From the NCBI GenBank assembly GCA_046563655.1, contig CM102289.1:5580001-5644000 (forward strand): a DNA stretch of 64,000 nt, given 5' to 3'. Below, piece by piece: positions 1-51,657 of this stretch. Below the pieces are notes generated by a model. It saw only the letters and a list, made by a program, of their open reading frames with translations. It had not been told where the DNA came from and did not search any database. A program made the translations under genes and the position numbers. How positions within the stretch are numbered: position 1 is the first letter of the stretch; each line of letters begins with the position of its first letter. This stretch comes from Yuukianura sp. NJ FZ-2021. Taxonomy: Eukaryota.

Positions 1-3000
1 CTGAATCCTATCCAAATACTCTCCTGTAACCACGTAACCTACATCACTCGGGGTCAAATAAGTTCTGTCTGTTGACCTCAAAAGGTCAATGACCTCTTCA
101 AGTGCCTTTTTCATGTAAATTTCAAACTCTACGCTACTTTTCACTCTAAATCCCATCCGATCTCCAAAAACTCCACCAACTACAGAAAGTACCGGATCAG
201 TTGATTCATTTGCAGGATGAATAGTTAATCCTGGAGAATCTTCTAAGATTGACCAATCGTCGTTCGACTCTTTGCTCCTCCCACTCATTACACCCAAGTA
301 GTTGAACAATATTGGCGGGAGAGGAACAGACTTGTCGTAGCCAATCAAATGACCGTATCCGAAGCCATGCGATGGTATGGCCCTCAGCGATTCTTTTGTA
401 ATTTTCAAAAGTTGAGCCAAGTTTTGTGTTCCAGCGATCTCCAATTTCACCGGAAACTTGGTTGTAAACCATCCAACAGTTCTGGAGTGGTCAACCGCCC
501 CTATGTCTTCTCTACCATGCCCTTCAAGTGTCACAAAAAATTCGGTGGAAGGAAACGCCCGTGACAATGCCAGTCCAAGAGCAGTTAGCAGAACATCGTT
601 CATTTCCGTATGATATACTCTGTGGGCATCAGACAACAAAAATGTCGTTGCAGCCTCGTCTAACGTAAAAGTAGCTTCGATTGCCGGTTTAGTGCCAAAT
701 TCAATTTTAGAGTTCATTGACCCCTGGGTCAACTGCTTCCAGTATGTCAGTTCTTCCGGATGGTCATTGGCATAACTCGAGCATGCGTCGACCCATTGTC
801 TGTAACTTGCTGTTTTTGGACCTAGACTCTGACCATGGTAAGCCGATTGCAGATCTTCCAGAATAATTCTCCAGCTAACTGCGTCTACAACCAAATGATG
901 AGCAGCGAGGAACAATCTGGCTCTTCCAGAATCATATCCATGAATGTAGCCTACAGTAAAGACACGCCCTTTTTCAAGGTCAAAAGAATCCTGCCAAGAT
1001 GTTAAGATTTTGCCCAACTCTGTGTCATTCTTCACTTTTTTGATATCAAGTACACGCAGCATGACCAATCTCGCCTCATTGTACGTCTGACTCTGTTGAC
1101 CTTGGAAGCTGGACCCCAGTATATCATGATGAGCCAAAACAGCGTGCAGTGCAGTAACTAATTTTTGTTTTTCCAGCGCTGGAACGTCAACAAGAAAAGC
1201 CTGATTCCAGTGCCCGGGAATTTCGAATTCTTTGGACCAAAACCAAGATTGAATTGGCAGTAGCGGAAAAGTGCCTTTGAGAATTCCAGTTTCACCAGAG
1301 AATTTGATTGGTTCAAAAGAATTAACATGGCAGAAGACATTGTCCGTTAGAGCCTGAATCGTTCTAAAGTCAAAAATATTTTTCACAGTTACGGAGAGCT
1401 GAAGTTGTTGGCGCATGCGTCCTGCTGCTTGGATACAAAGAATGCTGTCTCCACCCAAATAGAAGAAACTGTCTGTGATACCAACCGATTCCACTGGAAT
1501 TTTGAGCAACCCTGACCAAATTTCAGCAATGTCCAGCTCTGTTTGATTTCTCGGAGCCACTCGGACTCTTCCTTTCGTCACCAACTGAGATTCGGGATTC
1601 GGCAATTGTCGCCGATCCACTTTTCCGCCAGGAGTAAGTGGGACTTTGTCAATTTGGACAAACAGGGTAGGAATCGCATATGACGGTAGATGTCTTCCCA
1701 GTTCGATTCTCACTTCCTCTTCGTTTTTTACTTTTCCAACGTAGTAACCAATCAGAATCGTTCTTTCCTCTCCGTCATTGTTTTTACGCCCTTTGACCTC
1801 TACAACTGCTGCGTCAATTCCTGGAACGAGCTTCATGAAATGTTCTACCTCGCCTAACTCAATTCGAAATCCGTTGACCTTGACTTGAAAGTCTTTTCTG
1901 CCTACAAATTCCAGTTGACCTGTTACGCAGTCGCGGAAAACAAGGTCACCACTCTTGAATAATCTACCATTCCTGCCTACTTTTTTGTCCTCTTCAGTCT
2001 GAAACGGATTTGGAACGAAAGATTTGTCAGTCAATTCCGGCAAATTCAAATATTCCCGCGCCAAAGACTCTCCGCCAATGAACAGTTCGCCCAAGCAACC
2101 ATCAGGCAGAGCAGAGCCATTGGAATTTAAGACATAAAAAGTGTTATTAGCCAATGGGAAGCCAAGCACCGAGCTACGACTCCCCTCTATCTTGGTGTTT
2201 GTTACACACACTGCAGCTTCCGTCGGACCGTAGCGACTCATGACCTTGACCTTGTCTGACCAGTAGGCCGCTAAGGGTGGACTGAGCGTCTCTCCGCCAA
2301 TGACAATGCTTTCAAGGTCTGGATAAGTTTCTTTTGGCAGCGATGGCAATAAAGCAGGACGCGTATGCAAATGCGTTATTTTGTTGTCCTTGATGTACTT
2401 GGCCAAAGCGGGCCCTTCAAGAGCCAATTCCGAAGTGAGAAGATGAACAGTTCCACCAAGCAGAAGTGACGCAAAGATGTCAAGCGTAAAAGCATCAAAT
2501 GCGTAAGAAGAAAAGCTGGTCGTGATTGGTCGACGCCCTTCAGAGTATGTCGTAGCCTGGAAAGCTGCCACGGTATTCAAAATCGCTGAATGTTCAACGA
2601 GAATGCCCTTTGGTTTTCCCGTTGTCCCTGAAGTATAAATGCAATAAGCCAATGCCGATGGACTAACTTCTGGAAGTCTTATGGAGGGGTCACCAGAACT
2701 CTTCACGTCAATTAGCACAAGTTCAGCACAAATTGATTTCAAAAATTCAAAATTCCCGGAATTCGTAACCGCCAAAACGCGTTTTCCACTTTGTCCAACG
2801 TCTTTTATAATCAACTCAATACGTTCTTTAGGTGCTTCGTCATGAATCGGCACATAAGCCTTTCCCGCCAAAAGAACGCCCAAAATCCCAACGACAACTT
2901 CTTCATTTCTGTCCAAATACAGCAAAACTAAATCCGAATTTGAAACTCCCGCTTCCAAAATTTTGCGCGCCAAGGATTTGCTTCTCTCGAGAATATTAGC

Positions 3001-6000
3001 ATAAGAAAAGCTGATTCCATTGAAAACTATTGCAGTCGTGTCAGGAGTCGACTCGGCTTGACGAGCGAACCAATCAGTAACGGTGGTTTGTTTCCGCACA
3101 GGCGTGACGAATTTATTACGTTCAACAATCGTTTTAGTCAGCTGATCTTTGTTCATAAAAGAAAGCTTTTTGATTGGAAGCTGAGGATAAGAACCCGTTT
3201 GAGTCAAGATATGAGCAAAAGTGGCGCCAAAAGCAGCAATACCCTCTGAACTAAAAATGTTTGAATCGTATTTCAAATTGAAATACAACTGATCTTTGCT
3301 TTCTGTAACAATCAGGCTGAGCGGGTAATTCAAATGTTGGCGCGTACCAAGATGGCGCGGCATCAGTGAAGATGAAGTGACTTCAGGAAAGTTTTCATAA
3401 ACCAGTAAAGTTTCAAAAAGCCGTCTGCCCTGTTTCTGAATTTTGGACAAATCCGTGGCGGCAAATTGATTCGCTTTCAAAATCGTTTCTTGCAAAATTC
3501 TCAACGCCTCAAGAATAGAATGCTCTGAAAGTTCGTCATGATCAAATACTACTGGAAGTGTGTTGATGTACAGCCCAACCGAAGCTTCAATTCCCGGAAC
3601 GGGTAGAACACGACCGGAAACTGTCGTACCGACTACTGTCTTTTCACTCCTCCCAAATACACTCAGTGTTTTGTGCCATGCGTACTGCGTCGCAGTGTTC
3701 AAGGTCAAACCTTCTCGTTGCAACTTTTTCAAAATTTTCGTCTGACCTTTGCCTAGTTCAAAAATGTATTCGGCTGGAGATGTCACTGAACTTTGTTCGA
3801 GCAAATCTAGAGCACGACTGACATTGTGCTGAAACAAACCACGCAGGTCTAGCTGATCTGTCGCCTCGCATTGACTCCTGACCTGTTCCCAGTATTGCCC
3901 ATGTTCATTATTTACAACGGAACGTTCTAAATGTGCTTGTGCCTCTTCATAAGCAAAATCGACTTCAACCAAATCATGTTTTTCTGTTCCCAAGCACTCC
4001 TCATACTCGTCGTGAACAAAGTCCAGAAGGCGTGTCACACTCCATCCGTCCAAAATTCCATGATAGAAACTCAGCACAAAAACGGCTCCACCATCACCAT
4101 TTTCAATCAAAATTGTTCGAAAAAGCCCGGGTTTTTCCAAATCATAAGCCGTTGACCTATCAACTCCCAACACATTTTCAAGCCTCACCGACTCGTCTTT
4201 ATCAAAATGAGTCCAACAAAGTGAAGCCGATTTTTCGATAATTTGCAGGATCTCACCCGTCGTCCAATCAAATCGGAGGCGAAGAGAAGGAAATTTTAAA
4301 ATGGCGCGTTCCCAACATTTTTGCAATTTGAGGGCATCAGGAGCCTCTGGATAGTCAAGCAAAATTTGAACTGTGTAGGCGGGATCGTCAGGGTAAGTAA
4401 GCGAATGAAATAGAATTCCCTGTTGAAGTGAATTTGCTTTGTAGACTCCTACAATTCCGGACTCCGAAGTATTTTCTAAACGAGCCAAATTCAAATCTAC
4501 GTTGAGCGGAACATGAATCACAGATTTGATTCTGATGAGCGCGAAAAGATTTAAACAAAATTTGCTCAATCCTTCCTTCCATGTGGAATAAAAATTAAGT
4601 TCTCCATTTTCGTTGACAGTTGAATGAAAAAAGTGAGATGCAAAAGAAGGTTTGATGACAAAATGACCTTGACCTTTGCCCTCACTGTAAACAACGACTT
4701 GTTCCTGTTTTTCGAAAAAGTTGACCCCTGAAATTTCTCCCTTTGAACAGTCGCCAATGTTACCAGATTCGGGCATTTTGAATATCCCGCACTTTCTTTG
4801 TCCATTGCTCCCAACAGTAACGTAAGGAACTTCTGCGCGTGAGTCAAATCCAGAAATCGTGGCCAAAAACGCCGTCAAAATAATTTCAGAAGCCATCATG
4901 TCTCGTTTTTCAATGGCAAACAATGAGCGTGTTTCATCTTCAGTGAGAGCCAATGAATGAACAGGCTTGAGGTCAAAGGTCATTGACCCCAAGCTACTTT
5001 TGAGCGGAAAAAATGCTGGCAGTGTTTGACCATAAAGTACTGAAAGTAAGTTTTGTACAAAAGAACCCGCACCTTTTTCACTACAAACCTGCTTGTTGAC
5101 GACACAAAACAGTCGTCCGAAACCGTCCGAAAGCCCGCGAATCGTTCCGACAAAATACCCGGGTTTCTCTTGACCTACGCAACCCGCCCACTCTGAATAC
5201 AATTCCTTCACCTCTTGCTCTTCCATGAACTGGACATTGGCCGAAGAGCAGTTGACCTCTCCCGGGTACTCACTGTACGTCATAGTTTTAATGTCAAAGA
5301 TGTAGTCCAGTTGAGGAAAGTTTTTCAAAACTGAACTTACTGCGGTTTTTACAGCTTTGAGTCCCTGAACGTTAGCAGTCTGGACCAAAAACACATGAGC
5401 AGTAGGGTAGAGGCCAACGATCTCAGCATCAACATATCCAGTGTTACGCTGCCCGGCTGTTTCAGAACCGCCCAATGCTTCAATGTGCTCAGCTAGGCTT
5501 TTGATGGTTACGTAATCAAAAACGTCTCTAATGTTCACCTGAATGCCTACGTCTTTGCTAAGTCTCGAGGCGACCTGAATTGCTGAAATACTGTTTCCGC
5601 CTAGACTAAAAAAGTTGTCAACTAAACTAATTTGGTCTGATACGCCTAGTACTAACTTCCAAACATTTCTAATGTGTTCCTCCAGCGCAGTCAAAGTTTC
5701 AGAAGCTGGATACTGACCTTGGTGAGCTGACGGATCAGCCTTCGGCGATTCCTGGTCTGAGTCCTGAACGTGGTCTCCGTGGAGCGATGGCAGTTGTAGA
5801 GTTGATTCAATTGGCAGTGGCAGTAAAGTCGTTGGGTGAATAGCGTCAACCTTGGGGTCAAGTCCAGCAGAGCGCAGTTTCTCAATGGTGCTCAAAAAGT
5901 GTTCCAATTGGTTTCCGTGAAGACTCGTGGCAGTGAGACGTGTGATTGAGTGATGAAGAGAAGCAGCAAGAAAACTCTGAAGTACCGGTTTTCGTCCAAT

Positions 6001-6884
6001 TTCGAGTACGATACTTCCCTTCGGAATTTTTAGGAGACAGTCGTAGAAGAAGTAGGGCTGAGCTAACTGATCAATAAAGTAGTCGGCATCGACGACAAGC
6101 GAAGTGCTCTCTTGTTCGTGTCGCTTGGAAATCCATCGTTGAGTTTTCGTCAACGGAGTTGGCAGTACGGGTAGACCAAGGGGTTGGCAGAACTTGCGGT
6201 AGCCTTCAGTGAGACGCGTATGAGTGGGATGTTCAATTCCATCAAAAGCTACGTTGAAGATTCCCCGGTTGTTGAGATTGAGCAAATATTCGTCCATGAC
6301 TTCGGGATAGCCTGAGATAGTTACGGCCTTCGGGCTGTTTTGAATTGCGAGACAAACCCCTTGAGGTACATCGACCTTTGCCTCTTCCCATGACATTCCG
6401 ATGAGAGCCATTTTGAGCGGTGGGAGCGTTGCATTAGTAACGATGGACTCAGCAATACTCGCTAGGCCGATAGTTACTTCTTGAGTGAACGTTCCATCGG
6501 CATACGCTGCTCCGTACTCTCCGGCAGAAAATCCAATGAGTCCATCAAATTCCAAACCAAGTTCCCGTAGCAAATCCACAATTGCAACCTACAATATATT
6601 TAACATTGAATGAATTTATTGTACCGACAACAAATACGTAATTAGTCATGCAACGTTGCTTGAATTCTTACCTGAAATGCAGCTCGACAAGCAATGATAT
6701 CCTGAACGTCTGGTACGCCCCTCAGAACTCGCAAGAGATTGACCCCTTTCTTGTTGAGAATGGCATGAGACTTGAGAATAGATGCTCGGAAGACAGGAAG
6801 TTCCATGAAATCGTGGACAGAAACATACTCATCGCCAAATCCCGAGAAAACTAACCAAAATGGCGGACGAGATACAGACCCCAT
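1..6884 (-). CDS. Hybrid acyltransferase-NRPS (AT-T-degenerate E-C-A-T-E...), 3' end beyond window
   Basis: Exon 1 6884-6672 (MGSVSRPPFWLVFSGFG), phase-0 GT-AG intron 6671-6589, exon 2 6588 to <1 read by hand with no stop (2196 codons; absent from the ORF track because no stop lies in the window). Motifs: AT GFSAGE; T DNFFSLGGNSI (~5590); C FYHGILDGWS (~4050); A YTSGTTGKPKG, YGPTE, FKSGDL, QVKVNGFRIELGE, PGGKVDRR; T SFFYLGGDSI (~1450); E HHLVVDAVSW, TLEGHGRE, SRTVGWFTT. Confidence 0.93.
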
Positions 6885-25890: not shown

Positions 25891-26254
25891 GTTGATCTGC
25901 TCTCTCCAGAACTAGAAGTAAGAAGTGTGTAGTTGTTCGAGTTAGCATCCAACCAAACCTGTTTTCAAAACATCATCTTGCGTTTTGGATTTAAAAAAAT
26001 GTTTGTTTTTTGAAATATTCCAAATCCTCACACGGAGCAAACCTCCACAGCGGAAAACCAAGAAAACCAAAAAAAAATGTGTCAAAAACATGACGAACCA
26101 ATCTTTTTTTTTTCGTACAACATTTTCGATTTATTTGCAATGTAGTCTCCATGTTAGGACAAGAGGCGGCAGTAATCTTAAAACGACAGTAAGATTGCTG
26201 CAAATTACTAAAATCTGAAAATTTTACCATACGCACTGTTGAGTTTTTTAAAAT

Positions 26255-28154
26255 TCATTTCCTGTACTCCACATTAACCAGAAGTGGGCTTCCAAGAGCA
26301 AATGCCTGAGGGGTTTGGCTACAGCGGCTAAATTTAAACTTTTGCAAAAGTTGAACTACGGTGATTTTCAATTCAGCTTTAGCCACTCTGTAGGCAATAC
26401 AATTCCGTGGTCCTGCGCCTGCGCATTAAATAAAACATTTCAGTGCCTAATATTAATGACCTTTGACCTACGAATGACCTTGACTTACCAAATGGAAGGA
26501 ATGTGAAAGGATTTCGCTTCTTTATGTTCTCAGGACTGAATCTATCGGGATCAAACTTTTGCGGGTCAGGGTAGATTTCTGAAATTTCAAATTTTAGTAA
26601 TTTTTGAGGTTCAACTTTTTAACAATTTTTTTCAGCGTAAGCTGCGATGCCGGATTTACCTGGATCATGATGAATCGCATGAATTGGAACAATGATCTGC
26701 GTATTCCGCGGAATAGTGACATTGTATTTTGGCGAATGCACTGCCGCATTTGTCCTCCTCTCTAGATGTAGGACTCCATACTTTCGAGTACTTTCCTGAA
26801 TTACTTGTTCCAGGAAGCCTAATTGCAAAATGGAGTCCAATGGCCAGGTAGGTTCGTTGTTCTCCAAGGTTTGAATTTCCCGGAACAACTTTTCTTGTAT
26901 CTCTGGATTGTTGACGAGTTCAAAAATGACGCAAGTGAAGCCTTCTAGCATATTACTGGACTGTGCAGTGAACAGGCTCATGGCACTGCCCACCATGTGC
27001 TCTTCAGTTGGCACGAACTTTGAATTAGTGTAAACCAAGGCCTTGTTAACCGTTCCGGTGCTTACATCCCTATTGTCATCAACTTCTTCCTGAAAACAAA
27101 GCAGAGAAGATGTCAAGAAAATTTAAACCGTTTTTTTCCACTTTTCACTTTTTATAGCATTTTAAAATTTTAAGAAATCGTTGACCTGCTCAGTGTTGCC
27201 CTTCTTCACCAAAGTCATCATTCGTCCAACAAAGGTGTTCCAGTTGGACATGACGCCATCTTCAAGATTCATTCTGCACTGTCGCAGAACATCTCGGAAG
27301 AAATTTACAGCCTCTGGGTTAAGGGCATGCACTTTCAAAAAATTCCCCACCCACGGATACTTCAAAATCATGCGCCATTTCCAAGTTTGAAATGCCGAAG
27401 AAGGGGCTGCGTGCATTCTGCCGGCAAAGGAGAAAAAGCCACCGGGTGGGTCATCGTAGGCTCCACTTTTCGTCCCATAAATAATTTGAACTGCGATGTC
27501 GGTGACGAAGCGATGAAACAACTTTCTCATGTCCACGGGTTCGTTTCCTGCAGCCTCCGAAATGAGCCGAGTCAGCTCTCGAGCGGAATCGGATATCATT
27601 GGACACATTGCTCGGATTTTTCCGGTAGTGAACATTGGGTTGATTGCTGATCGGATGTCTTTCCACTCTTGGTTTTTAGCATGAAAGAGAGCCCTTCGTG
27701 CTATGGGGTCACTCAACTCTGCAGAATTGACACGACGGTTGACACAACTCATGAAGTCTTTAACCTTGAGTAGGAAAAATACAAAAAAAAATGGTAAAAT
27801 GGTGTGACCTTGCCTAAGAAAAACCCGGAGATGAAATTTGAACCCATGACAGATCGATTGGCTTACAAAGATTTGTTCCAGAAGATCGGTTCCGTAAACG
27901 TAGAGAAGTGGAACGCCAGTTTCAAAAATTCCGGCAAACTCCGCGTGACCTCTGCGCTTCATCTCTTTGTACTTGGCAATCTCAATGTCGTAACGCTTGA
28001 AGACTGAATGTTGACCAAACTGGGACAAGCCAAGGGCCTCCGTGTCCACGAAGGGAACATTCCTCCGTGCCCAGTATGTTTCCCGGGGGTCCCTTCGCAA
28101 GTACCACCAAAGTCCGACGATTAAAGCAAATAGTAATACAAATTCCACCAACAT
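26255..28154 (-). CDS. Cytochrome P450, CYP3 clan, atypical I-helix, 5 exons
   Basis: MLVEFVLLFALIV anchor, WKDIR, ESTRKY, FDPDRF, spliced heme motif PFGAGPRNCIA; I-helix LFTAQSSNM. Stop TGA 26255-26257. Confidence 0.9.
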
Positions 28155-28794
28155 TTCACAGGAAGTCCAGAGTACGGTACGTGCGCTAGGTGCAACAGCA
28201 AAACTAGAACTGGCCGCTGCCATGCCGGTTTATTCAAAATCATTTTTTTTTACCAAAAAGGGCAAAACAGGTTCTGAAACGAGAAACATCGTATGAAACA
28301 AGAACGAGATTTGATCAAAACTAAAAAACCGAGATCGAGAGTTTCTGAATTAAAAAAAATTGTTTTCTGTTCATTATAATTTCAATTCTCACATTTCCAA
28401 AAATTCACTAGAAATAGAAACTGAAATAAAGGAATTCAAACCGGTACATTTTTTATTCATTCATTTTATACACATAGCATATAAGGTAGTAATAACATTG
28501 CAGAAAAGTTACTCTTTTACTTCTAAATAAAAAGCAAAAACCAATCACCGATTTTGAAAATACTGAGCAATTTTGCAGAAGCTTGGGTAGTAACATTAGT
28601 ATAAAACTAACCTTTTTGAATGAAGAACTGTGAGTTAATTTTTTTAAAGTTACTTTTCAACTCGAAAAAACAAACGGAATATTTTATGGTTTCTGTTTTT
28701 CTGTTACATCTAATTTTCTTATACTAATTTCACGCATTGCCTCCAGTTTAAAAAGCAGCGTATTTCTCTGGATTTTGTGACAGCTTTCAAAATT

Positions 28795-31700
28795 TTAAAT
28801 GGCAGTAAGCAAATTTTTGGCAACGGCAGTGATTGTTTGTTGTTCTCGAAGTTTACCACGCGGAATGACAATTCCCAACTCCTTCGATAGCCTATTTGTA
28901 ATTTCCAATTCCATGAGGGAATCCATACCATAAAGTGCAAGGGAGTGGCCTCTGTCAATCGCTTCATCATCTGGCAAAGACACGTACATTCTAATGCACT
29001 TCTCAATCAAAGTCTCAAGGTGCCCCAATTTCTCATCTTCTCCCGCCCCCTTAACCTTCAAAACCATTTCAGCCAAAACGTTACGTTTTCCCCCACTGAC
29101 CTCTGTCCCCTTTGTGCGTGACCCCACCGTGACCCCCTTCTTCTGCGCACGCACTTCCGTAAAATACTCATGCAACTTGGGATATGCAACCACTCCCATT
29201 TTTTCTGTGTCGAATCGGAGAATTGTTGCTTGGTCAAGACCTAGGCGCATGGCTCTTTCAAGGGCTGCGATTCCCTCCTTTGGCGTAAACCAGTGGATTC
29301 CACTGCGTTCGGTCAAATACTTGACCTGTTCAGGGGAAATATGATTTACTGCAATGCCGACATCTAACCAACCGCCCCAATTGATACTCGTCGCAGGTAA
29401 CCCCAGCTGATGCACGCGATACTTTGCAAAAGTGTCTAAGAAATTGTTAGCGGCAGTGTAGGCTGCTTGACCAGCAAAACCTACGTTAGAGGCAATTGAG
29501 GAAAAAAGAACAAAATGGTCGAGGTCAAAGGTCAAACTTTCTTCATGTAAATTCCAAGTTCCTTCGACCTTGGACTGAAAAGCTTCTTCAAAGTTAGTTA
29601 CAGAGAGGTCAGAAATTACACCATCTCGTAACAGACCAGCCGAATGGAAGATTCCTTTGAGTGGCGGGAGTTCAGATTTGATTTTTTGAAATAGTTCTTT
29701 CACTCCCGCCTTTTCACCAACATCCGACAGCATGACGACGGCAGAATCACCAAACTGAGCCAATTTGTTCAACACTTCGGGATCAGTCGGTTCTCGCCGA
29801 CCAGTTAAAATTACTTTACCAGCTCCCTGTTCCAGAAGCCACTCGGCAACCACAAGTCCAATCCCCCCAAGCCCCCCTGTGACCAAATAGGAACTCTCGG
29901 CATGAAACAATCTTGTTCGAGAACTCATATGCAGAACGTACTTTCCAATGTTCTTGCCCTCACTCATCTCGTTGAGCGTTCTGGCTAGCTGGTCAACACT
30001 TTTAACCTTGTATGGCATTCCTCTAATGCTTCCAGAAGCTAACAACTGTTCTATTGGAGTCACGTCTCTACCAAGATCCGTCATAAGGTCATAAACACTG
30101 TAGGTTACGTCGGGTCGGAGGTCATTGACCTCCTCTTTAGTCCAAGTATTGAATTTACTCATCTCAACAAATCTCCCGCCACCATTTTTTCGCACAACGT
30201 TCAAACTGGCTTCCTTAAACCCTTCAGCTGTAATCGTGTTTACGACAAGATCAACGCCCTGACCTCCAGTGTCCTTTAGTATTTCTTGTTCAAACCGAGT
30301 GTCAATTGAGTCATAAACGTGTTCAACACCGAAGACAGTGGAGAGGTAAGCTCTTTCTCTGTCACTTCCTGCTGTGGCATAGACAGTAGCCCCGACGTGT
30401 TTGGCCAATTGAATCACCGCAAGGCCGAAACCGTCCGACGCACCGTGAATCAACAAGTGATCACCGCGTTTGAGTTTTCCTGTTTCGTAAACACCGAAAT
30501 AAGCAGTGCAAAGTGGAACCGGGAGAGTTGCGGCTTCGTCGTAACTCATCCAGGAAGGAATGCGTAGGATGCAGGAAGCCGATTCAGGAGTCACGTGACT
30601 TTGAATTTGGCTGGTTTGCTGGAAAGAGCCACAAAGACGATCTCCAATGGCAAATCTACTGCCTTCACCAACCTGTTCGACTATCCCTGCAAAGTCTGTT
30701 CCAGAAACAGCTTTCTCTTGTCCACCAACGTCACTGTGAATGGCAACCTCTAGTGAATTGGGAGAAATGGAGTTGACCTTGATCACTGTGTCAGTGACCT
30801 CGAACGGTTTTAGGAGTTTTGGTTCATAGCGTCTGAGCCCACCGACTCCAGTAGCTGTGAGGCTAAACGGAGCCGCTGGTGGGTGGAACTCACCGGGCAT
30901 GAAGGTGGGATTAAACGGAACAAGACGTGCACAGACAGCTTTTCCTTCACGGATGACCACTTCCCGTTGAATGCCAGCATGACTCACGTGAGCCGTGATT
31001 TGGTGCGCAAGCGCAGAATGATTGTTTGTGTACTCCGTTTGGTCAATGTCAAGTCCAATTGCGTCAATATGTGGATACTCGCTAACAAAAGTTTTTAAAG
31101 CTCCTTGGAGAACTGTTCCCATAAAATTGGAGCCTAGAGATCCTGTCCCGTTCGAAATTGACCCTTGAGATACTGCCACAAATTTCTTTGTTTCTGCAAG
31201 GGAACCAACAAATTTCAGTGTATTCAAAAATCCACCAATCAGATTCTTTGTTACATTTTTGTCCAAATGACCTGACCCCTGAGTAGCTTCGTCTCCCAAA
31301 CCCCAGAGACTCACTACTCCTTCAAGCGTAGGAAATTCCTCAGCCAGCTCTTGGTGGTGGGCCAAATTTTGTGGGTCAAGGGTCACGTGAGAGTAACTAA
31401 AACAGTAGTCTGTATCTGCCAATACTAGCATTGCCCTGACTCCGAGGTCATCCATGATACTCTGTTGAACAGCTTCAGCAAGGGCCTGGACCTTGGTTGG
31501 TGCAAAAATGAGCCAATCAATTGTTTCTGTTTTGTGAATAATCTGCGCATGACCATTGTGAGTCAGTTGGGGAAGGGGAATCCATGATTCTGTGTAAAAG
31601 TCAAGCAGTTGCTGATTGCTTCTTAAATTGGTTTCAAAGTCGGCTTTTGTTGTGATCAGTTGAAGGATTTTGGAAGCGGCGACGAGCGTTCCTTCGCTGT

Positions 31701-34700
31701 CGTACAATTCAGTCGTGTCGGAATTGTTTTTGTCTAACTTAATGTAAAACGGAGCTTTGGCTTCTGATTGGCGTTTGTAAATGTGGCAGTATTCGAATTT
31801 GGCCGGAAGTACAATTGATGGGAAGTTGTTGTAGTGACTGGTTACCGGGTTCATGCAAGTACTATGAATCATGCCATCGAGTGTAGCAGGGTGAATGATA
31901 TGTGCCTCTGCGTCTTCGGGAGTGTTCATTTTGGCGACAGGGAAATCATCAAGGGGCCACAAGGTCGCGACGCTCTGAAACATGTCTTGGTATTCCAGTC
32001 CCGCTTCGGCTGCTTTCGGGTAAAATGCTGCCGGAATGCCTTCCGTGTTGACAAAGGTCATGTCAAGCTTAGGAAGTTCTGTAAGGCGATTGGGCCGTCG
32101 GGGCATTGACCCTGTGAAGTATTTTTCCAAAGTATCTCCCCGTTTGACCCACAAAGTAGCTTCGAGACCGTCAAAATTTCTGCTTTCCTCCAAACTGACT
32201 TCAATTTGGACGGGTTTTCCTTGCTCAAATTCTAATGGTTTGCTGAGTGTCACGTCCGTAACAGAAAGATGTTCGTAGTTGAGGTACTTCTGCGCACTGA
32301 GCAACATGTCAACGAAGCATGCGCCGGGTAAGATATACCTTCCAACCATTTGGTGACCTTTGACAAAAGCCACTTGGGGGTGGGTTAGAGACAAAGTGTT
32401 TTTGAACGTAGGCAGAACAGAGTGGGGAGAACGAAATGCCCACCCCAGGAGGGGGTGAACAAATTCGTTTACTCCAGATCCAGTGTGTATCTGGGGAGCA
32501 ATAGCCAAGTTGTACACTTTGTGATTGAATGGGTAGAAAGGCAGGTCAATGACCTTGGGTTGGTGACCTCCGTGTAACGCTGCCCAGTTGATGACCCCGT
32601 TCCAAGAAGTGTACAATTTAGCCAAACTTTTTAGAATAGTTGGCATTCCTTGAGGGTCAGCTGATCTTAGGCTTGGGCAAAGCGTCAAAGGCTCAGGAGA
32701 TGCTTGTGAAACAAAATTTAGAAGTGCCGGTTGTGGTCCAATTTCAATAAAAATTTTAGGAGCATTTGGCAAATTCAGGACCGTTTTGATAGCTTTTTCG
32801 AAAAAGACGGGCTGACGCATGTTTGAAGCCCAGTAGTCACCGTTGACCTTTGCTTCAACCTCACCAGTAACACTGGACACGAAAGTACAGAATGGTTTCT
32901 TATATTCTATCAAATCAAATGCAATTTTCAAAGAATCCCGAATTTTTTCAATATGTCTGGAGTGAAAAGCGTGAGAAGTGCTGAGCACTTTCATTTTTAA
33001 ACCAGGATTAGACGACAAAACAAAATTTTTGAAAGCTACTAACGATTCCTTGGGTCCTGACACGACACACTGCTCCTTTGAATTTACCGCTGCGAGGTCA
33101 ACCCAGTGACCTTTGACCTCAGTGGAATCAATATTTGCTGAGTTGAACTTTTCTATTAAACTCGTAGCATTTTCCTGACCTGTTCCCACTGCCATCATAC
33201 CCCCTGATTCTAAAGTTTCAACGAGTTCCCCCCGGGCGATAACGGCCTTGAGACCGTCTTCAAACGAAAACGCGCCTGCGCTCGCTGCACAACAAATTTC
33301 ACCCAAACTGTGACCAAGAACCACCGAAGGTCTAATTCCCAGTCCCTCCATCCAGAACTTGCCCAGTACATATTGAATTACAAAAATGGCGGGTTGTCTC
33401 CACTTTGGTCTGAGGTCATCAAAGGTCACTTCATCCTCCCACACAAGTTCTCTAATGCTCTTTCCCAGCATTCCTTTAAACAGAGCTGCGCATGGGTCAA
33501 AAAGAGCCCTGAACACTGGAGATGCATTGTACAGACCCTTAGCAACTTCAAAGTACTCAGCCCCTTGACCCGTAAACAAAAATCCAATAGGATCTGCGGG
33601 TTGACCTGCTACAACATTCACGTCTCCCTCAAACTCGAACTCCGTATCACCCAATTTGTCAATTGCACTGGCACGGTCTCTAGCCAAAATTGCAATTCTT
33701 TTTGAATGATGCGCACGCGTCGTTTGGAGACTAAACGCAACCTCGTCCATTTCTGGAGCATCAGACTCCAGTTTCTGCTTAAGTTTTTCGCAAAGAACTT
33801 CCAGTGATTTTGGCGATTTGGCAGAAATAGGCAAAAAATGAAACGGAACTTTCTGATCTAGCGGTAAACGATTTTCAATTGGAGGGTGGATGTGGGTGGG
33901 TGGAGCTTCGGCTAATACGACTGCTACATTAACCCCCGTTAACCCAAAATTGTTAAAAGCCGTAATCCGGGGTGATCCGGTCGATGGGTATGGAATCGGC
34001 CGTGTAGGAATAACGCCCGGAATTGAGTCAAAATTGATTTTGGGATTTAAATTATTCAAATGAATTTGTGGTGGAATCGTGTTATGTTTGAAACAAAGAA
34101 GTGTGTGGAGCAGACTGTGTAAACCGGACACGGGTAGAGTGTGACCAAAATACGTCTTGGCAGACGTGATAACCAATGGCTTTGGGCGTGGTATTTCAGA
34201 TCCAAACAATTCGACCAACCCGTTCGCTTCTAAGGGGTCCCCAACGGGGGTTCCAGTGCCATGGGCTACCATAAAACCAACGTCACTTGCTTCCACGCCT
34301 GCGTCGAGCAGAGCAGATTTCAGCACGCGCGTTTGAAGCTTTGGATTTGGCGTACCAAAACTTTTGCTGTAGCCACAGTTATTTGTAGCCACGCCTTTGA
34401 CCACGCCCAGAATCCTGTCCCCATCTCTTTGAGCATTTTCGAGTAATTTTACAACAATTACTGCCACGCCTTCGGCTGCAGCAAAGCCAGAAGCACTCTC
34501 ATCAAAAGCCTTACAAGCTTCACCAAATAACGCATCCGGCAAGTTGACTTGATTGCGCAGACGCAGAGTAGTTCCAGCGACGAGGGCCGTTCTGCAGTCT
34601 CCTTTGCGTAGAAATTGAACGGCTTCGTAGAGGGCTGTTCCGGAAGAGGCACAGGCAGTGTCACAAGCCATGTTTGGTCCATTGATACCGAGAAAGAATG

Positions 34701-35187
34701 CCAAAGTCCCTGGATATGCACTCCATTCTGTTCCCAAGTACGAGTACATTCGTGTGTTGTCGGACGTGGCTTCGTGAGTTGTTAGTTGTCGATATTCATT
34801 GTCGCAGATTCCAACGAAGACGCCCGTGTCAGTGTCCCAGAGGCTGGACGGAGGAATGCGAGCATCTTCCAGACTCTCCCAAGCTACTTCGAGGTACATA
34901 CGCATCTGAGGGTCCATGAACTCTGCTTGTCGTCGGTTGAAGTTAAAGAACGGGGCATCAAATTCGTCGACTGGACATGCGAGGTATCCCCTTGGCCATT
35001 CTCTGTTCGCCCATTCCCCCATGTGGTGACGCTCTTCAGGCGGAGAGGAAGTGTGGTTTTCTCCATTGATCATGACACGCCAAAGGTCGTCCAGGGAATT
35101 GGCTCCTGGAAAGCGACAACTTGCCCCGATGATGGCGACATCGAAGGCTCCACGGTACCCTTCATCTAGATGCCCCAAATTGCCCAT
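28795..35187 (-). CDS. Type I polyketide synthase KS-AT-DH-ER-KR-ACP (~2130 aa), single coding exon, no TE
   Basis: KS DTACASS, HGTGT, GHT; AT GHSLG, HAFH; DH HQMVGRYILP, HPATLDG; ER LLIHGASDGFG; KR LVTGGLGGIG, LRD, YTAAN; ACP YGMDSL. First ATG at 35187 follows an acceptor-like ttttcag; the ORF track start at 35256 is TTG. Confidence 0.95.
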   Translation of the reverse strand: MGNLGHLDEGYRGAFDVAIIGASCRFPGANSLDDLWRVMINGENHTSSPPEERHHMGEWANREWPRGYLACPVDEFDAPFFNFNRRQAEFMDPQMRMYLEVAWESLEDARIPPSSLWDTDTGVFVGICDNEYRQLTTHEATSDNTRMYSYLGTEWSAYPGTLAFFLGINGPNMACDTACASSGTALYEAVQFLRKGDCRTALVAGTTLRLRNQVNLPDALFGEACKAFDESASGFAAAEGVAVIVVKLLENAQRDGDRILGVVKGVATNNCGYSKSFGTPNPKLQTRVLKSALLDAGVEASDVGFMVAHGTGTPVGDPLEANGLVELFGSEIPRPKPLVITSAKTYFGHTLPVSGLHSLLHTLLCFKHNTIPPQIHLNNLNPKINFDSIPGVIPTRPIPYPSTGSPRITAFNNFGLTGVNVAVVLAEAPPTHIHPPIENRLPLDQKVPFHFLPISAKSPKSLEVLCEKLKQKLESDAPEMDEVAFSLQTTRAHHSKRIAILARDRASAIDKLGDTEFEFEGDVNVVAGQPADPIGFLFTGQGAEYFEVAKGLYNASPVFRALFDPCAALFKGMLGKSIRELVWEDEVTFDDLRPKWRQPAIFVIQYVLGKFWMEGLGIRPSVVLGHSLGEICCAASAGAFSFEDGLKAVIARGELVETLESGGMMAVGTGQENATSLIEKFNSANIDSTEVKGHWVDLAAVNSKEQCVVSGPKESLVAFKNFVLSSNPGLKMKVLSTSHAFHSRHIEKIRDSLKIAFDLIEYKKPFCTFVSSVTGEVEAKVNGDYWASNMRQPVFFEKAIKTVLNLPNAPKIFIEIGPQPALLNFVSQASPEPLTLCPSLRSADPQGMPTILKSLAKLYTSWNGVINWAALHGGHQPKVIDLPFYPFNHKVYNLAIAPQIHTGSGVNEFVHPLLGWAFRSPHSVLPTFKNTLSLTHPQVAFVKGHQMVGRYILPGACFVDMLLSAQKYLNYEHLSVTDVTLSKPLEFEQGKPVQIEVSLEESRNFDGLEATLWVKRGDTLEKYFTGSMPRRPNRLTELPKLDMTFVNTEGIPAAFYPKAAEAGLEYQDMFQSVATLWPLDDFPVAKMNTPEDAEAHIIHPATLDGMIHSTCMNPVTSHYNNFPSIVLPAKFEYCHIYKRQSEAKAPFYIKLDKNNSDTTELYDSEGTLVAASKILQLITTKADFETNLRSNQQLLDFYTESWIPLPQLTHNGHAQIIHKTETIDWLIFAPTKVQALAEAVQQSIMDDLGVRAMLVLADTDYCFSYSHVTLDPQNLAHHQELAEEFPTLEGVVSLWGLGDEATQGSGHLDKNVTKNLIGGFLNTLKFVGSLAETKKFVAVSQGSISNGTGSLGSNFMGTVLQGALKTFVSEYPHIDAIGLDIDQTEYTNNHSALAHQITAHVSHAGIQREVVIREGKAVCARLVPFNPTFMPGEFHPPAAPFSLTATGVGGLRRYEPKLLKPFEVTDTVIKVNSISPNSLEVAIHSDVGGQEKAVSGTDFAGIVEQVGEGSRFAIGDRLCGSFQQTSQIQSHVTPESASCILRIPSWMSYDEAATLPVPLCTAYFGVYETGKLKRGDHLLIHGASDGFGLAVIQLAKHVGATVYATAGSDRERAYLSTVFGVEHVYDSIDTRFEQEILKDTGGQGVDLVVNTITAEGFKEASLNVVRKNGGGRFVEMSKFNTWTKEEVNDLRPDVTYSVYDLMTDLGRDVTPIEQLLASGSIRGMPYKVKSVDQLARTLNEMSEGKNIGKYVLHMSSRTRLFHAESSYLVTGGLGGIGLVVAEWLLEQGAGKVILTGRREPTDPEVLNKLAQFGDSAVVMLSDVGEKAGVKELFQKIKSELPPLKGIFHSAGLLRDGVISDLSVTNFEEAFQSKVEGTWNLHEESLTFDLDHFVLFSSIASNVGFAGQAAYTAANNFLDTFAKYRVHQLGLPATSINWGGWLDVGIAVNHISPEQVKYLTERSGIHWFTPKEGIAALERAMRLGLDQATILRFDTEKMGVVAYPKLHEYFTEVRAQKKGVTVGSRTKGTEVSGGKRNVLAEMVLKVKGAGEDEKLGHLETLIEKCIRMYVSLPDDEAIDRGHSLALYGMDSLMELEITNRLSKELGIVIPRGKLREQQTITAVAKNLLTAI

Positions 35188-36733
35188 TGTTGAATTTTTC
35201 AATTCTGAAAAATAAAGGCAAAAGCACACTTGAGTCGGATAATTAACAAATGACAAACTTTGGAAATGTTAGTTAGTTAGTTTGAAAATGAAAACTGAAA
35301 ATTATAGCAGGGCTGTAACGCATTCTAGCATTTTTTTTTTTGGAAGTTGGGAAAGTAACACTTTTATGCTTACATTTGATGGAGTCCTGATTGAGTGATG
35401 GTGTTGGCGGCTGTCGTTTAGAAAACGGCTACCGTAGGAATTGCCCTGGAAGTTTCAAAAAAAAAATAAGCTATAAAACGGCAGATCAGTTGAGATAAAT
35501 GGAAAATTCTGAACTGAAGAGAAAATTAACTAGTAAAATGGAACATAACAATTAATTTAAATGCAGAAGCTTTTACTTGGAACAGAGTGAAACTATATAG
35601 GTGCGGTGCTCTAACCCTGGTGGACGATACTTCCAAAGTAGCGTGAAGATGCTGCCTGCACTCCCACCAAGCCTCAAATGAAAGTTACCAGCAACTTGGA
35701 AACTGGTTCTGGAAGTTTATAGGTACACCGGCATTCCAAGTCCTCCAGCTACTGAAAGCATCGTTCTCAAGGATATTACCAAACTAGTTACTCTTCCTAC
35801 CAAGAGATTCGGCTAGTTTTTATTACTAATATTAATTAAATATTAAATCAATATTAATGAAATAATATTAATAATAATATTAAAAACAATAGTAAATTAA
35901 TATTAATAAAATACTATTAGTTTACGAATTCATAAAAATATCAATTGAACAGTATAATTTATTTTCATCGCATCAAACAAAAGTAACATCAATGTGTAAC
36001 TTTGTATAATGTGTAGCTGTTGTCAGCATATTCTACTGGTCTGATTGTGACCAACAGACCATGCCATGACCAAGTGACAGAGACCACGTCGTCACCCGGT
36101 GATTTCCATTAACCTAACATGGAAAGCAGAAATTCCGGTCTTCGTCCGTCTGTCTCTTCTGCCAGAAAAGTCTGCCGCAGCCTAAAATGACCTTGACGTA
36201 AATGCGAAGAGAATTCCGGCCACTTACTTTTCAGCCTCCTTTGTAGCAAAAACCAGAAATACTTAAATACTTATACGCTAAAACCAGTTTCACAGGAATT
36301 TAAAACACAATTCTGGAAGAATGAACATGGATGGTTTGAAAAATCATTATTATTCCCTCAGTCTACCATCTACAACCGGAATCCACCTTGCTTTACGCAA
36401 TTGTAATGAATTCAGCCAAAAATGAATAATTAATGGGAACCATCGTAAACTTCGATTGGATTTGATTTGTGGATGAGTTTTTACGAGTTTCTCTCGAATA
36501 ACTTACCAAACAACATGTATTAATTTTCACTTTTGAGAATTCCCAACAAAAGCCTTTTTTACTCAAATTGAGGTGCGGTTTGAGCCGCAAGTAAAAATGT
36601 CGTAAAAAATGCAGTAAATTAAAAGAAAACCATTAGCCAGGATTCAATAATTAACATACTAGTTTCCAAATTCTTTTTTTTTTGTTTTAATTAACTTACG
36701 GTTATTAATGAAGAATAACCATTTGGCTATTTT

Positions 36734-39700
36734 TTAAGTAATTGTGGATTCTCGGTTAGACGGACTTTGAGCTTCCCGTGCTTGTAATCGCTCCATGATT
36801 TCAGAAGCGGTGTGAATAAACTCCGACAAAGCGATTTCAATTACTTGAACTCGTTCTTGTAGACTGCATTTGAAAAAACGAGTTGAACAATTTTTCAAAA
36901 TAACTTTCAAAAGTATTTTATGGAATACCCAGAATAATCTTGTGACGATTGGGGTCCAAATTGTGACATCCGACTAGTTTGTCTTCGAAGTACGCTGACT
37001 CTGTTGTCTGATGCATTGTGGTAATGGGTCTCTCCTTCATCTAAAATTGTTTCTCCTTCCAAATCATGCAAAACTTGTTGAGTTTCATCCTCATTTAGAG
37101 TTCGATCTTGGTCCAAATCAAAACGTGCCAAAAATAATTCAATTTCAATATCCGTAAATCCGGAACTAAAATTTCACGAAACACAAATCTTAGATTTTTT
37201 TTTCAATCGAATGAGAATTTCAAGAAACTAACCGTATTAAATTGGCACGAAGTTCGTCATAACTAATTTGTCCATCGGCTGCTGCCAATTTAATTGAAGC
37301 CTCCGCATCTACTTTTGTATTTCGTGTACCGATTTTTCCTTTGATGTTGTTGCCCCATCTTTTGAAGTAGTCTGCAATTTCAAATTCATTTCGCTGAGCT
37401 TGAATTTCAGCTTTGACTTCACTGTAAGTGTCGTTGATGATGGCCAAAAACATGTTCTAAAAATTATAACACCATTACAAAATCTTTAAAAGATCTAAAA
37501 TATGAAATATTAAAATTAATACTGCTTACCAGCAAAACAAAAAAGACAAAGAAGACGTAGGCAAGAAAGAAAATTGGACCGAGGGCTCGGTTTGCGGCTT
37601 CAATTTGTCGAAAATTGAAATCTCCAAGGATGAGTCGCAACAGAGTAAATGTAGCATTGACAAATGTACTAAAATCTTCAACCTAACAAGAACAAACCAA
37701 AAGTCATCAAAACAATCAAATCAAACGGCGACATCAAAATTTAAGTTATATTTTAGATTATTTTTGGAGATCTTCACCTGGGATCCAAACAGCAAGTAAC
37801 CCAATTGCGCAAACGCAAAGAATACAATGAAGAACATGATTGCAAATCCTCCGATGTCTTTGGCACACTGTCGAACACAAAAATCATCAAGTTAGGCTAC
37901 CGGATTAGGTTCATTAGGTTAACGTGGCACAAAACCTACCCTTGACAAGGTACTGGACAGTTGCGTCATTGTTTTGTTGAAAGAAATGTATTTGAAGACT
38001 TTGACCCACGAGAAAAAGAGACAAACGGAAACTGCGTGGTTGAACTGCGTCTCCCAGTATCCCAAAAATTCAAAATTGTGAAACTCGTTGGAATCCTTGG
38101 TGAGGTCATTCAATGTATCTTCAACCAGGAAGTAGCGATAGATGCTGAATGCAATGCATAGAAACGAAGTCTGGAAACAAAACATTTTAAGAATTTTAAG
38201 GACTTTTCAAATGATGAATGGTGATTTTGAATTGTTGCGTACAATAAGAATGGTGACATCAAGCCAAGTCCAAGGGTCAAGGATATAAGCTGGACACCCC
38301 AAGTGACACATCTCAACCAACTCTTGGATCAAGTAGTACAGTGTGAAAACGATGAAAAGAATTTCAGCAGGAAGAACAATGTACAACTCAATCCAAGTTT
38401 TGTAACGAATCAGTTTTACAGTTCGAAGTGTATATGATGTCATCACGCCTCCTGTCGCTGGAAATTCCCAAACAAGCCTGAAACCAATATTTGACAAGTT
38501 TAAAAAATTGTTTATATGAAGTTTTTTTTAAAAGCATTTGAGCATTTTAAGAAAATTCTTACTTGACCACACAGAACAAGTTGATGTTGGCATTGTAAAC
38601 TGTAAAATCCAGAAACACTGCACGAGTTGCTCTCGTAATCCACAAATTCTGCTTGAGTTGTTTCATTCTCTGTTTGGAACTGGCATAGTCTCGTTCTAAA
38701 TTTCGAACACCGCCGTTTCCAGTGTACCACGACAAGTGACCCCAATGCCAGCTACCGGAACTTCCTTCTCTGTAGGTCCATCTATTCAAACACGAAAAAA
38801 AATCAGAAGAACTAAATGTTTCCTAAAAATCTGTGAACAATCTTCATTTTTATGAACAAACAACTCACGCTGCTGCGATTTCCTGAGCTGAGGTTTGGTT
38901 CAGTTGTGGAAAGTCTACCCATTTATTGGTTCCATTGCTTCCTGTGTCTTCAACATCAAAACTGTACTCTGGGTAGCATTGACGATGCAATTGGCGGAAG
39001 TTGTCAGCTACCGGGCAACTAGCTGGCTTCACCCGAATCTAAAGCAGCAGTAGGAGTAACAAATTGGATTAATAAGTTAATTTAAGAATAAAAAATATTT
39101 CAAATGCAGTTACTTGTCGTAGACGCGGAAGACCCATGAGTTGATTTTCGTATAAAATTCCAAACTTCTTTTCCTCGGCAGTTATGAGTTCTTGGATAAA
39201 CAAGTTTTTCAAATTGGTTTTGTCAGCACCCGCAGCTCCGTACCAATTTTCCCAGTAAAGTCCTTCCAGCATCGGTCCTTCGACGTACTAAAATCAAAAA
39301 AATTCAACGTTAATTCTGGCAACTATGAATGGCTTCAAAAATCTGCTTGCTCTTACATTCCAAAAGTCACGAACGTCAGTAGACGTTTCAAACGTTTTTG
39401 AGTCATCCGCGTCTACATCAGATTCACGCGTTACAGCTTTGTCCACAAACAAATCTCGCATCACTTTAGTGTAATAGTAGCTTGACGCCGAATGATTGAC
39501 AAACACCACTGGAAATTAAACAAAATTTCAAGCACAGAAACAACGAAGAGTCAAAAAAAAGTCTTACTCGTGCAGAAAGTTGCCAAGTAGAACGTGTAGA
39601 TGATGAGTTCACGAACAGAGTACTTGACATAAAGTTCTCGGTTTCCTTTGGATGCTAGTTGGCGCGTGGCAAATATTGCTAAATGTCAAAACATCAAATA

Positions 39701-44707: not shown

Positions 44708-45210
44708 ACCTTTTGTTCAAGCTTTCCAACGAAATCAACGAAAAAAATCCTTACTCTCAACTTTCAGTAACTTGAACGAATTTATTGCTTTGAAAAGAAA
44801 TTTGAACCGGAAAAATTTAGTTACGAAATTCTATTTTGTAGTATCGGCGAATCCCAATCTAAAAATATTGAAAAATTAACAAACCCCGGAATTTGAAAGC
44901 ACAGAAACGCCCATAATTTCGAGAGACGAATCCAAACTATAAAGTAATTTTTTTTGGGCCAAAATCTCATTTTAAATTTATGTGCAGACTCAAACAATAA
45001 CAACTATATGGAGGTCCGTCGTTTGGATAGTTAAAAAAATCTAAAAGAACTTAAACTACAATTGAAAAAAAAAAACTTTGAAAAACAACAAAAAAACAAT
45101 CGAACACCTAGTAGGATATAATAAAGCCTTTAACAAACTTATGCGCAGCATTTATTATTCTAATCCACAAAATTGTTGTTGTTAATCTAATATTCTGCCT
45201 ATTTCAGTTT

Positions 45211-46531: not shown

Positions 46532-46982
46532 GGCTTAGCGTCGGATAAACGCAAACGCAATTCTATGTATTCGCTTTTGAATGGTCTTCTCCATTTCTCG
46601 TATGAATTTTTTGTAAATTGTTTTTATGAAAAGTGCGGAACCAGAGCATTGTAAATACCAACGTCTTTAGTGAAGTAAATGAAGATTTCTTGATAATGAT
46701 TCAAAGTGGTTTACTACACGAAGTGTTTTTGAAAAATTCAGAACAATAATGAAATTTGTTGGGCGTGTCAAAAAAAAGTGTTTTTGATAAAAAAAATCGA
46801 TCCACTCAAAGTTTTGACACAGTAAGCATGACCTTGGAAAAATTTGACTGTTTCCTATTGGCACTTGTAGAATAAAGTGGATTTCCTTTATACATAGAAG
46901 ATTAATATCTAACAATTTACATTAAGTTGCCAAACTTTATATACCTAAAAATTATTCTTGTTCACCTAAATAAGTTGTCTTT

Positions 46983-51155: not shown

Positions 51156-51657
51156 CGAAACTCTTCTCGCAAACAAACCAAAAATTCCACAAATTCGAAC
51201 TTCGCTAAAAAGTTCAAGTGTAAGCTCAAAGCTTCAAAGGAGTCAATGTATAAGTAAAGTCACACTTGGATAATAAGTCAAAGACAAACACAAGTCCAGA
51301 GTAATCATACAATTTGGTTTAATTTACACCAGTTGAAGGGAACATCTTCAAATATAGCTTAAACAAGAGTCAATTTAAAATCAACTTTTTCCAAATTCAG
51401 AAGTTACATGCATACAAGAGGATGAGAGCATGCGTGGGCGGTAGATTTCAAACCGGTTTTGAGGTTGACTCGTAGAAGTAAAAATTTTGAAATTGACCTC
51501 TACATATAAATTGAGCCAAGTTAAGACGTAAAAGTTAGCAATTCCGTTTCTTCAGCACAAACATGAAAAAAAAAAACTATGAAAAACAAAGTTTTTTAAA
51601 AACTGGAAAAAAAAGAAATGCAAATGAAAAAGTAATGAGGGATGAGTGCGCAGGCGT

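Follow-up and report, generated by a model that had tools for sequence, protein, structure and literature searches.

A transcribed bacterial-type polyketide synthase with a putatively impaired enoylreductase lies near a nonribosomal peptide synthetase gene in an animal genome

How does a polyketide synthase (PKS) of bacterial type, with an intron-free reading frame and no domain for releasing its product, come to stand among the intron-split genes of an animal, and what would it make there? The question is raised by a 64,000-nucleotide stretch of the Yuukianura sp. NJ FZ-2021 genome (assembly GCA_046563655.1, contig CM102289.1, positions 5,580,001 to 5,644,000 of the forward strand; the whole stretch is hereafter the window, and its own numbering is used throughout), the minus strand of which carries a type I PKS gene at 28795..35187. 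We consider it fairly probable that this gene encodes a bacterial-type PKS with the layout of mycobacterial MAS, that it settled in an animal genome long ago, that its enoylreductase is impaired, and that its chain is handed to a nonribosomal peptide synthetase (NRPS) encoded in the same window. The host is probably an arthropod, and the gene is expressed there through a spliced eukaryotic mRNA.

The open reading frame (minus strand, 35256/35268..28795) is uninterrupted, and between its first ATG (35187) and the stop codon (TAA, 28797-28795) it comprises 2130 codons free of stops; this coding sequence (28795..35187) holds no intron. The domain order is KS-AT-DH-psiKR-ER-KR-ACP (ketosynthase, acyltransferase, dehydratase, structural psi-KR, enoylreductase, ketoreductase and acyl carrier protein), and Pfam retrieves in this order the N- and C-terminal KS families, the KS-AT linker families, AT, PKS_DH_N with PS-DH, ADH_N (weakly), ADH_zinc_N, ADH_zinc_N_2, KR and PP-binding. 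The initial annotation, made from the sequence letters, had described the KS, DH and KR motifs as intact, the AT as malonyl-type and the protein as ending at its ACP, and each of these features was located in the translation. The KS (34057..35142, residues 16-377) carries DTACASS (176), HGTGT (309) and FGHT (347), so that the Cys-His-His triad (Cys179, His309, His349) is complete; the in-line AT (32662..33582, residues 536-842) shows GHSLGE (625) and HAFH (739), the latter of which we take to be the malonyl-type motif; and the DH (31669..32457, residues 911-1173) reads HQMVGRYILP at 945 (HxxxGxxxxP) and LDGMIH at 1103, with DxxxH at 1105. The KR (29365..29892, residues 1766-1941) has GGLGGIG at 1771 (GGxGxxG), a B-type LRD motif at 1853 and YTAAN at 1910 (YxxxN), and the ACP (28816..28971, residues 2073-2124) has GMDSL at 2087 with Ser2090 as the carrier serine; the C-terminus (...NLLTAI) is reached 41 residues beyond that serine.

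The best full-length match among solved structures is MAS of M. tuberculosis, which aligns as a single stretch (residues 16-2124 against 7-2094, E 6e-180), and the NCBIfam Pks2 model likewise matches end to end (724 bits, far under its cut-off of 2400). With MAS/Pks2 of mycobacteria the window protein thus shares the domain order, the length (about 2100 residues), end-to-end collinearity and an ACP end without thioesterase (TE); the roughly 290 residues between DH and ER (30793..31668), in which the Pfam scan found no family and no methyltransferase-like domain, are collinear with the psi-KR of MAS. It differs in its low identity (about 30%), in the HAFH of its AT where the mycobacterial enzymes have a methylmalonyl-type AT, in the altered cofactor site of its ER, and in being encoded by an animal. 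MAS is an iterative single module that is unloaded by a separate enzyme.

In the ER (29932..30792, residues 1466-1752) the fold is conserved while the cofactor motifs are altered. For comparison we aligned to it 190 ER domains taken from 189 proteins, a set from which the window protein, its longer duplicate (P0001) and its two relatives (P0005 and P0052, both metagenome singletons) were excluded; the former relative is the closest we found (59% identical, with the same architecture and C-terminus). The nucleotide-binding loop reads HGASDGFG (residues 1581-1588) and not HxAxGGVG, and its Asp1585 (codon GAC, 30433..30435) stands where all 190 comparators and P0005 have Gly. Furthermore, Ile1628 (30304..30306) occupies the place of an SR-motif Arg that is found in P0005 and in 188 of the 190, and residue 1746 (the H of HxGK) is Asn in the window but His in P0005 and in 173/190. 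The LNFRD segment is replaced by PNSLE (30748..30762, residues 1476-1480), where P0005 reads LNYKD; in these columns (192 rows, about 27 of them gapped) the window has Pro against Leu in 152, Ser against Phe in 156 and Glu against Asp in 161. Pfam ADH_N scores 20.9 bits in the window ER, under the cut-off, and 33.8 in P0005. The altered motif that the initial annotation had pointed out was therefore seen in both of its parts, and its suggestion of an impaired ER gains real support from changes at columns invariant in 188-190 of 190 domains, with P0005 canonical.

That the ER as a whole has come under relaxed constraint was considered as a cause and ruled out (16 departures from conserved columns in the window ER, 15 in that of P0005). 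By contrast, the KR departs from none of its 31 conserved columns, and the KS from 12 of 64 (11 in P0005). The radical, copy-specific changes of the ER are concentrated at its cofactor site while the rest of the domain remains constrained, and we regard it as rather probable that the ER has been structurally retained while being lost or much weakened as a catalyst. An ER-like domain that serves as structure only, leaving double bonds in place unless a trans-acting ER intervenes, is known from the fungal highly reducing PKS of LovB type, which differ from the window protein in having C-methyltransferase and C-terminal condensation domains (and whose KS scores 199.5 bits against it). By Pfam, the window offers no MDR-family protein that could serve as a trans-ER. 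In the available part of a review, the change of HAAAGGVG to HAAASPVG in DEBS ER4 is described as giving the unreduced anhydro product (PMC5655351).

How would a chain leave such a protein? The claim that the PKS has no release domain was borne out: it contains no TE, and neither room nor frame for a downstream TE exon was found. The gap between its stop codon and the ATG of the adjoining cytochrome P450 gene (28224..28794, minus strand) is AT-rich, measures 571 nt and has stops in every frame, and the P450 begins directly after it (28223). Thioesterase or hydrolase families were absent by Pfam from the 141 frames of at least 75 residues that lie outside the two giant open reading frames of the window, and P0005 and P0052 end at the same residue as the window protein. 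These three observations together make a spliced TE exon very unlikely.

A candidate acceptor is the NRPS gene at the left end of the window (1..6884, minus strand; ATG 6884), which consists of a first exon of 71 codons (6884-6672), an 83-nt GT..AG intron situated inside a part that resembles fatty acid synthase (FAS), and a second exon (6588->1) that runs off the window. Its domains are, in order, a FAS-like acyltransferase, a peptidyl carrier protein (PCP), 345 residues without family, and C, A, T and E domains. The acyltransferase scores 105 bits against the MAT of mouse FAS and at most 37 against acyltransferases not of the FAS type (LovB 37.1, PpsA 32.2, CurL 31.6); it reads GFSAGE against GHSLGE, has AYADG like the GYADG of FAS, keeps Ser and His, and aligns an Ala to the malonyl-binding Arg of the FAS YWRG motif. 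In rat FAS, mutagenesis that removes this Arg is said to turn the specificity of the transferase away from malonyl and towards plain acyl groups. The first PCP is of bacterial type, and the condensation domain (motif YHGILDG) precedes an A domain, a PCP and an epimerisation domain as in TycA/GrsA; the gene is a chimera in which an animal-FAS-like acyltransferase is joined to a bacterial-type PCP-C-A-T-E series. The roughly 345 residues that separate the first PCP from the first C domain (4447-5487, minus strand) had no match in Pfam, NCBIfam or solved structures. Off-loading is an attractive idea because an acyl-loading pair for which the NRPS itself provides no acyl source lies 22 kb from a PKS that terminates in an ACP, and that the PKS passes its chain to this NRPS is, to judge from the two architectures, a serious possibility to which we give slightly less than an even chance.

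On these grounds we propose the following course of synthesis. The malonyl-type AT would supply the extender unit, and KS, KR and DH, with their intact catalytic motifs, would carry the chain to the enoyl stage. In the ER the fold and the proposed catalytic Lys/Asp pair persist, whereas several residues that belong to the NADPH site have been replaced (Gly1585Asp, Arg1628Ile, His1746Asn, LNFRD to PNSLE), and the enoyl intermediate would hence be reduced poorly or not at all, giving a chain with trans double bonds. Since the protein holds no other module, iterative working is most likely. The acyl chain would then leave the ACP by transfer to the acyltransferase-PCP pair of the neighbouring NRPS and, by way of the PCP and the condensation domain, end up in an N-acylated (lipo)peptide, which the CYP3-like P450s encoded nearby could tailor and the ABCC transporters export. 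A bolder version, which we hold only tentatively, is that of a hybrid line built by the animal itself, in which an ER-silenced bacterial-type PKS works with a transferase from the host's own FAS (its Arg removed) that exon joining has fused to an NRPS, while the P450s, a methyltransferase and ABCC transporters finish and export the lipopeptide.

Several observations count against this reading, and some of them concern the ER. Of the 59 ER columns that are conserved to at least 90%, 16 differ in the window and 15 in P0005, nine of these being common to both, and identity to P0005 is higher in the ER (55%) than in the psi-KR (48%) or the DH (44%). The Lys and Asp aligned to K443/D465 of SpnB ER2 (chain 3slk_A) are kept, which we take to be the proposed catalytic pair, K422/D444 in the published numbering. 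Moreover, K1611E, one of the seven window-only changes in the ER, is a product of the alignment program, as in HMMER it is Arg1610 that falls on the Lys column, and the GAC at 30433-30435 has not been confirmed in reads, no variant being present there among the matches listed. Residual or altered ER activity may, to judge by the retained Lys and Asp, persist. An ER that works, perhaps with weaker cofactor binding, in a fully reducing MAS-like PKS whose saturated product feeds the NRPS or lipid metabolism would account for an overall conservation equal to that of P0005, for the retained pair and for an Arg1610 able to replace the conserved Lys. It accords poorly with an Asp at a site that is Gly in 190/190 combined with the Arg to Ile and His to Asn changes, all of them copy-specific, and with the engineered change at the same Gly pair that is described, in the available part of the review, as having inactivated DEBS ER4 (PMC5655351); we consider this alternative possible but unlikely.

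The proposed hand-over is weakened by distance, as PKS and NRPS lie about 22 kb and six genes apart and no result shows that their products interact. Leftwards from the PKS follow, in order, two P450 genes, an ABC transporter gene of ABCC/MRP type and a second ABC gene, and beyond these an MFS fragment, a methyltransferase and the 6.9-kb NRPS that runs off the window. The P450 next to the PKS is split into exons (the Pfam profile continues over 27165-28229, 26622-27122 and 26382-26618), with its larger exon closest to human CYP3A4, and the ABC transporter neighbour is scattered by Pfam across many short frames. The two CYP3A4-like P450s and two ABC transporters between PKS and NRPS (24473-28223, 8504-13487, 18476-22727) are host-type genes with many short introns, at least one of the transporters being ABCC/MRP. 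The methyltransferase frame (13861-14994, minus strand) has as its sole solved relative an M domain that lies inside an NRPS adenylation domain (5wmm, 83 bits); the frame begins within the methyltransferase fold, and an upstream exon is therefore to be expected.

A PKS that acts alone, with its nearness to the NRPS coincidental and its product released spontaneously or by an unlinked hydrolase or acyltransferase, would fit the six intervening genes and the fact that genes for CYP3-clan P450s and ABCC transporters commonly serve detoxification and tend to occur in arrays. It would also have a precedent in mycobacteria, where a separate enzyme, PapA5, unloads MAS. Against this explanation stand the three bacterial-type biosynthetic genes (PKS, NRPS and the methyltransferase resembling an NRPS M domain) that lie within 35 kb, and the acyltransferase-PCP loading pair with which the NRPS opens and for which that gene shows no source of acyl groups. 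We judge it doubtful.

Where the PKS came from was approached by score and by tree. Against solved structures, the KS alone reaches 289 bits with CurL, 266 with MAS-like proteins and 240-260 with DEBS, and less with Dictyostelium PKS16 (222), LovB (199.5) and animal FAS (197-206); the AT alone gives 169 bits with CurL and has no FAS among its best 60 matches; and the ER alone gives 144 with CurK, 131 with SpnB ER2, 86-92 with FAS and 63 with EcPKS1. The best solved matches of these three domains are hence all cis-AT modules of the curacin/jamaicamide type (CurL for KS and AT; CurK/CurF/JamJ for ER), although those belong to bacterial multi-module lines and have canonical ER motifs, whereas the window PKS is a lone module. 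Each of the ten Atlas clusters closest to the PKS comes from bacteria. The KS phylogeny that the initial annotation had proposed as a check was in this respect approximated by the scores (CurL 289 against 197-206 for FAS), and its description of the PKS as microbial in style holds in so far as KS, AT and ER favour bacterial cis-AT enzymes over FAS and LovB. The comparisons support a single-module reducing type I PKS of bacterial cis-AT type that is not FAS-like.

Close relatives are few. Of the best 120 proteins listed when 5.8 billion clusters were searched by word index, P0005 (67% in the KS) and P0052 (57%) were the only ones to exceed 39% identity, and a HMMER pass over 1.84 billion representatives with the DH-psiKR region as query returned P0005 (481 bits), a multi-module protein (142) and P0052 (122). 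A word-index search with the ER region omitted P0005 despite its 55% identity there, which is a miss of the index and not biology. P0052 (52% identical) lacks DH and ER in one continuous frame (KS-AT-psiKR-KR-ACP), and the family thus varies in its reductive loop. Scanning metagenomes with the PKS gave two irrelevant matches at 32%, the contigs of P0005 and P0052 not being among them, and scanning genomes with the alignment of the family gave only four loci in metagenome-assembled genomes (MAGs) of Actinomycetota, at 28-31% identity.

Two KS trees were computed, the first of 275 rows thinned from 768 KS domains of fetched proteins, and the second of 84 rows (the 24-row neighbourhood, 21 named rows and every sixth of the others, with one long-branch row excluded). 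In both, the window PKS, P0005 and P0052 form a clade with support 100 on a long stem, sister to P0125 (support 88 and 93), a protein laid out as KS-AT-DH-CMeT-ER-KR-ACP-R; clade and sister fall inside a poorly resolved comb of bacterial KS (Leptolyngbya, Mycobacterium, Chloroflexota, Streptomyces). A transfer of the gene would, from this topology, look old. A protein from a Legionella MAG, which shares a cluster with P0007, was considered as the donor and rejected, its KS not being adjacent to the window clade in the second tree. At KS residues 346 (34150-34152) and 400 (33988-33990) the window alone has changed, with P0005 keeping both; these changes (Asn to Tyr in the KSNIGHT-like motif, and Trp to Tyr) fall in columns conserved to at least 90% in 272 KS domains.

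Both trees are built without animal FAS, animal PKS, fungal or protist references. That they hold no eukaryotic reference KS has to be set against our reading of the origin, and a donor among the eukaryotes, or descent from an ancient PKS lineage of animals, remains formally conceivable. An animal enzyme that was never transferred, derived from animal FAS (an FAS-like PKS) or belonging to an old 'animal PKS' lineage, would be compatible with trees of this composition and with the low identity of the nearest bacterial KS (only about 35-39% among the matches listed). Against it, FAS and EcPKS1/2 score well under bacterial PKS for KS, AT and ER. Moreover, the acyltransferase of the NRPS in the same window, which is truly FAS-like, scores FAS first and was recognised as such, so that a FAS-derived domain in the PKS would have been recognised too. 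The PKS also has neither a methyltransferase-like domain between DH and ER nor a TE, both of which animal FAS is known to possess. Animals do have PKS lineages of their own, as stated in the available part of one paper (PMC10764717), but on this evidence we regard a native origin as very unlikely.

The gene is resident in the genome in which it was assembled. Animal-type genes lie on its other side (a polycystin channel and domain at 37922-38822, Cys-loop receptor ligand-binding domains at 50099-53012, by Pfam), and its GC content at third codon positions (0.44) is in keeping with the 0.41-0.50 of eleven further frames in the window, native and cluster genes alike. The public runs that hold the stretch are four DNA runs from one sample, one DNA run from a second organism and one metatranscriptome. 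The metatranscriptome yielded eight RNA contigs on the PKS (parts of the gene outside their cover carry no evidential weight), two of them with 0-1 differences and one crossing the stop codon (28697-28927). One RNA contig skips 35204-35373, a joint that is absent from three DNA runs, and on the gene strand the skipped stretch reads GTAAGC...TTTCAG (within 1 nt), as a GT..AG intron does. We place on this joint an intron in the 5' untranslated region (5'UTR) at 35205..35373 (minus strand), 18 nt upstream of the ATG, preceded by a non-coding exon (35374..35445, minus strand) that contains no ATG and has a pyrimidine tract and a CAG acceptor before it (about 35446). The gene therefore has a spliceosomal 5'UTR intron and its coding sequence has none, and the description of the gene as intronless among intron-split neighbours stands for the coding sequence and falls for the gene as a whole.

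The RNA contig that shows the intron continues upstream with 32 letters that match nothing in the window (35443-35480 and beyond); a 25-nt piece of this upstream end was not found in the window either, and the first exon is thus unplaced. The extra letters may represent a 5' exon outside the window, a diverged exon or a spliced leader. DNA contigs of the likely source sample show 66 bases swapped for 30 within the 5'UTR intron (35268-35335) and, further upstream (35818-35906), a skip of 73-87 bases; these differences are structural variants between haplotypes or individuals.

The PKS thus combines linkage to animal genes, host-like composition and eukaryotic transcript features, which together identify a resident, transcribed gene and not contamination. 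Bacterial contamination or an assembly chimera, to which the long intron-free frames of bacterial type might lead one, has a negligible probability, since intron-bearing and animal-type genes flank the PKS on both sides within one 64-kb window, its composition equals that of its neighbours, its 5'UTR is spliced, and DNA contigs of two organisms cover the junctions shown (that of the second organism spanning the P450-PKS junction, 27001-29107); contamination is excluded for practical purposes.

Among the remaining frames of the window outside the two giant open reading frames, Pfam recognises two Methyltransf_FA genes, a cytochrome-b5-reductase-like gene and SDRs. Several frames of 250-310 residues at 43506-47918 (minus strand) are without Pfam match, and the nearest ESM Atlas clusters to one of them are arthropod and of 'odorant receptor' type; the region is possibly a chemoreceptor array. 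The probable arthropod identity of the host is a lead taken from a single language-model look-up in that atlas, in which an otherwise unexplained frame of 311 residues lay closest to arthropod protein clusters; a direct search with an exon of the Cys-loop receptor gave no match. Rfam gave no match in the 64-kb window.

Hybrid polyketide-peptide synthesis by an animal has a precedent in nemamide of Caenorhabditis elegans, the PKS-1 and NRPS-1 genes of which are reportedly not clustered. According to the available part of one paper (PMC10531068), that pathway likewise relies on two megasynthases, and it differs in that its PKS domains are FAS-derived and multi-modular; the same text mentions NRPS genes in springtails, rotifers and nematodes. 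For Folsomia candida, 30 type I PKS and 3 NRPS clusters are given by antiSMASH in the portion available of its report (PMC5490193), and a passage of another names the Folsomia PKS OXA62418.1 as horizontally acquired while stating that arthropods have few true PKS (PMC10764717). Bdelloid rotifers are described, again in the available part of the source, as having about 40 acquired NRP/PKS clusters that are induced on fungal attack (PMC11258130). The likeness of these springtail and rotifer genes to ours, as far as those texts go, is that bacterial-type megasynthase genes are resident in the genomes of soil animals; the difference is that the texts describe neither the architecture of the window PKS, nor an impaired ER, nor a fusion of FAS acyltransferase and NRPS. 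Bacterial-type PKS in soil animals are already known as a kind, and the window PKS belongs there. Our literature search, within the parts of the sources that were available, found no gene described with this domain layout, none of this sort with its ER impaired and no FAS transferase fused to an NRPS, and supplements may list such genes.

The common view is that animals obtain their complex polyketides and peptides from microbes. Here a bacterial-type PKS that is transcribed stands near an NRPS, with host-type tailoring and export genes between the two, an arrangement that points to a compound for defence or signalling which the animal makes itself; if the bolder version holds true, an arthropod genome would have brought foreign and native parts together into a biosynthetic gene cluster of its own. 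The PKS family to which the gene belongs is almost unsampled, with two close metagenome singletons among the matches listed from about 15 billion proteins. Its three members, with a canonical ER (P0005), an altered one (the window) and neither DH nor ER (P0052), may offer a natural series for how a reductive loop is switched off after a change of host.

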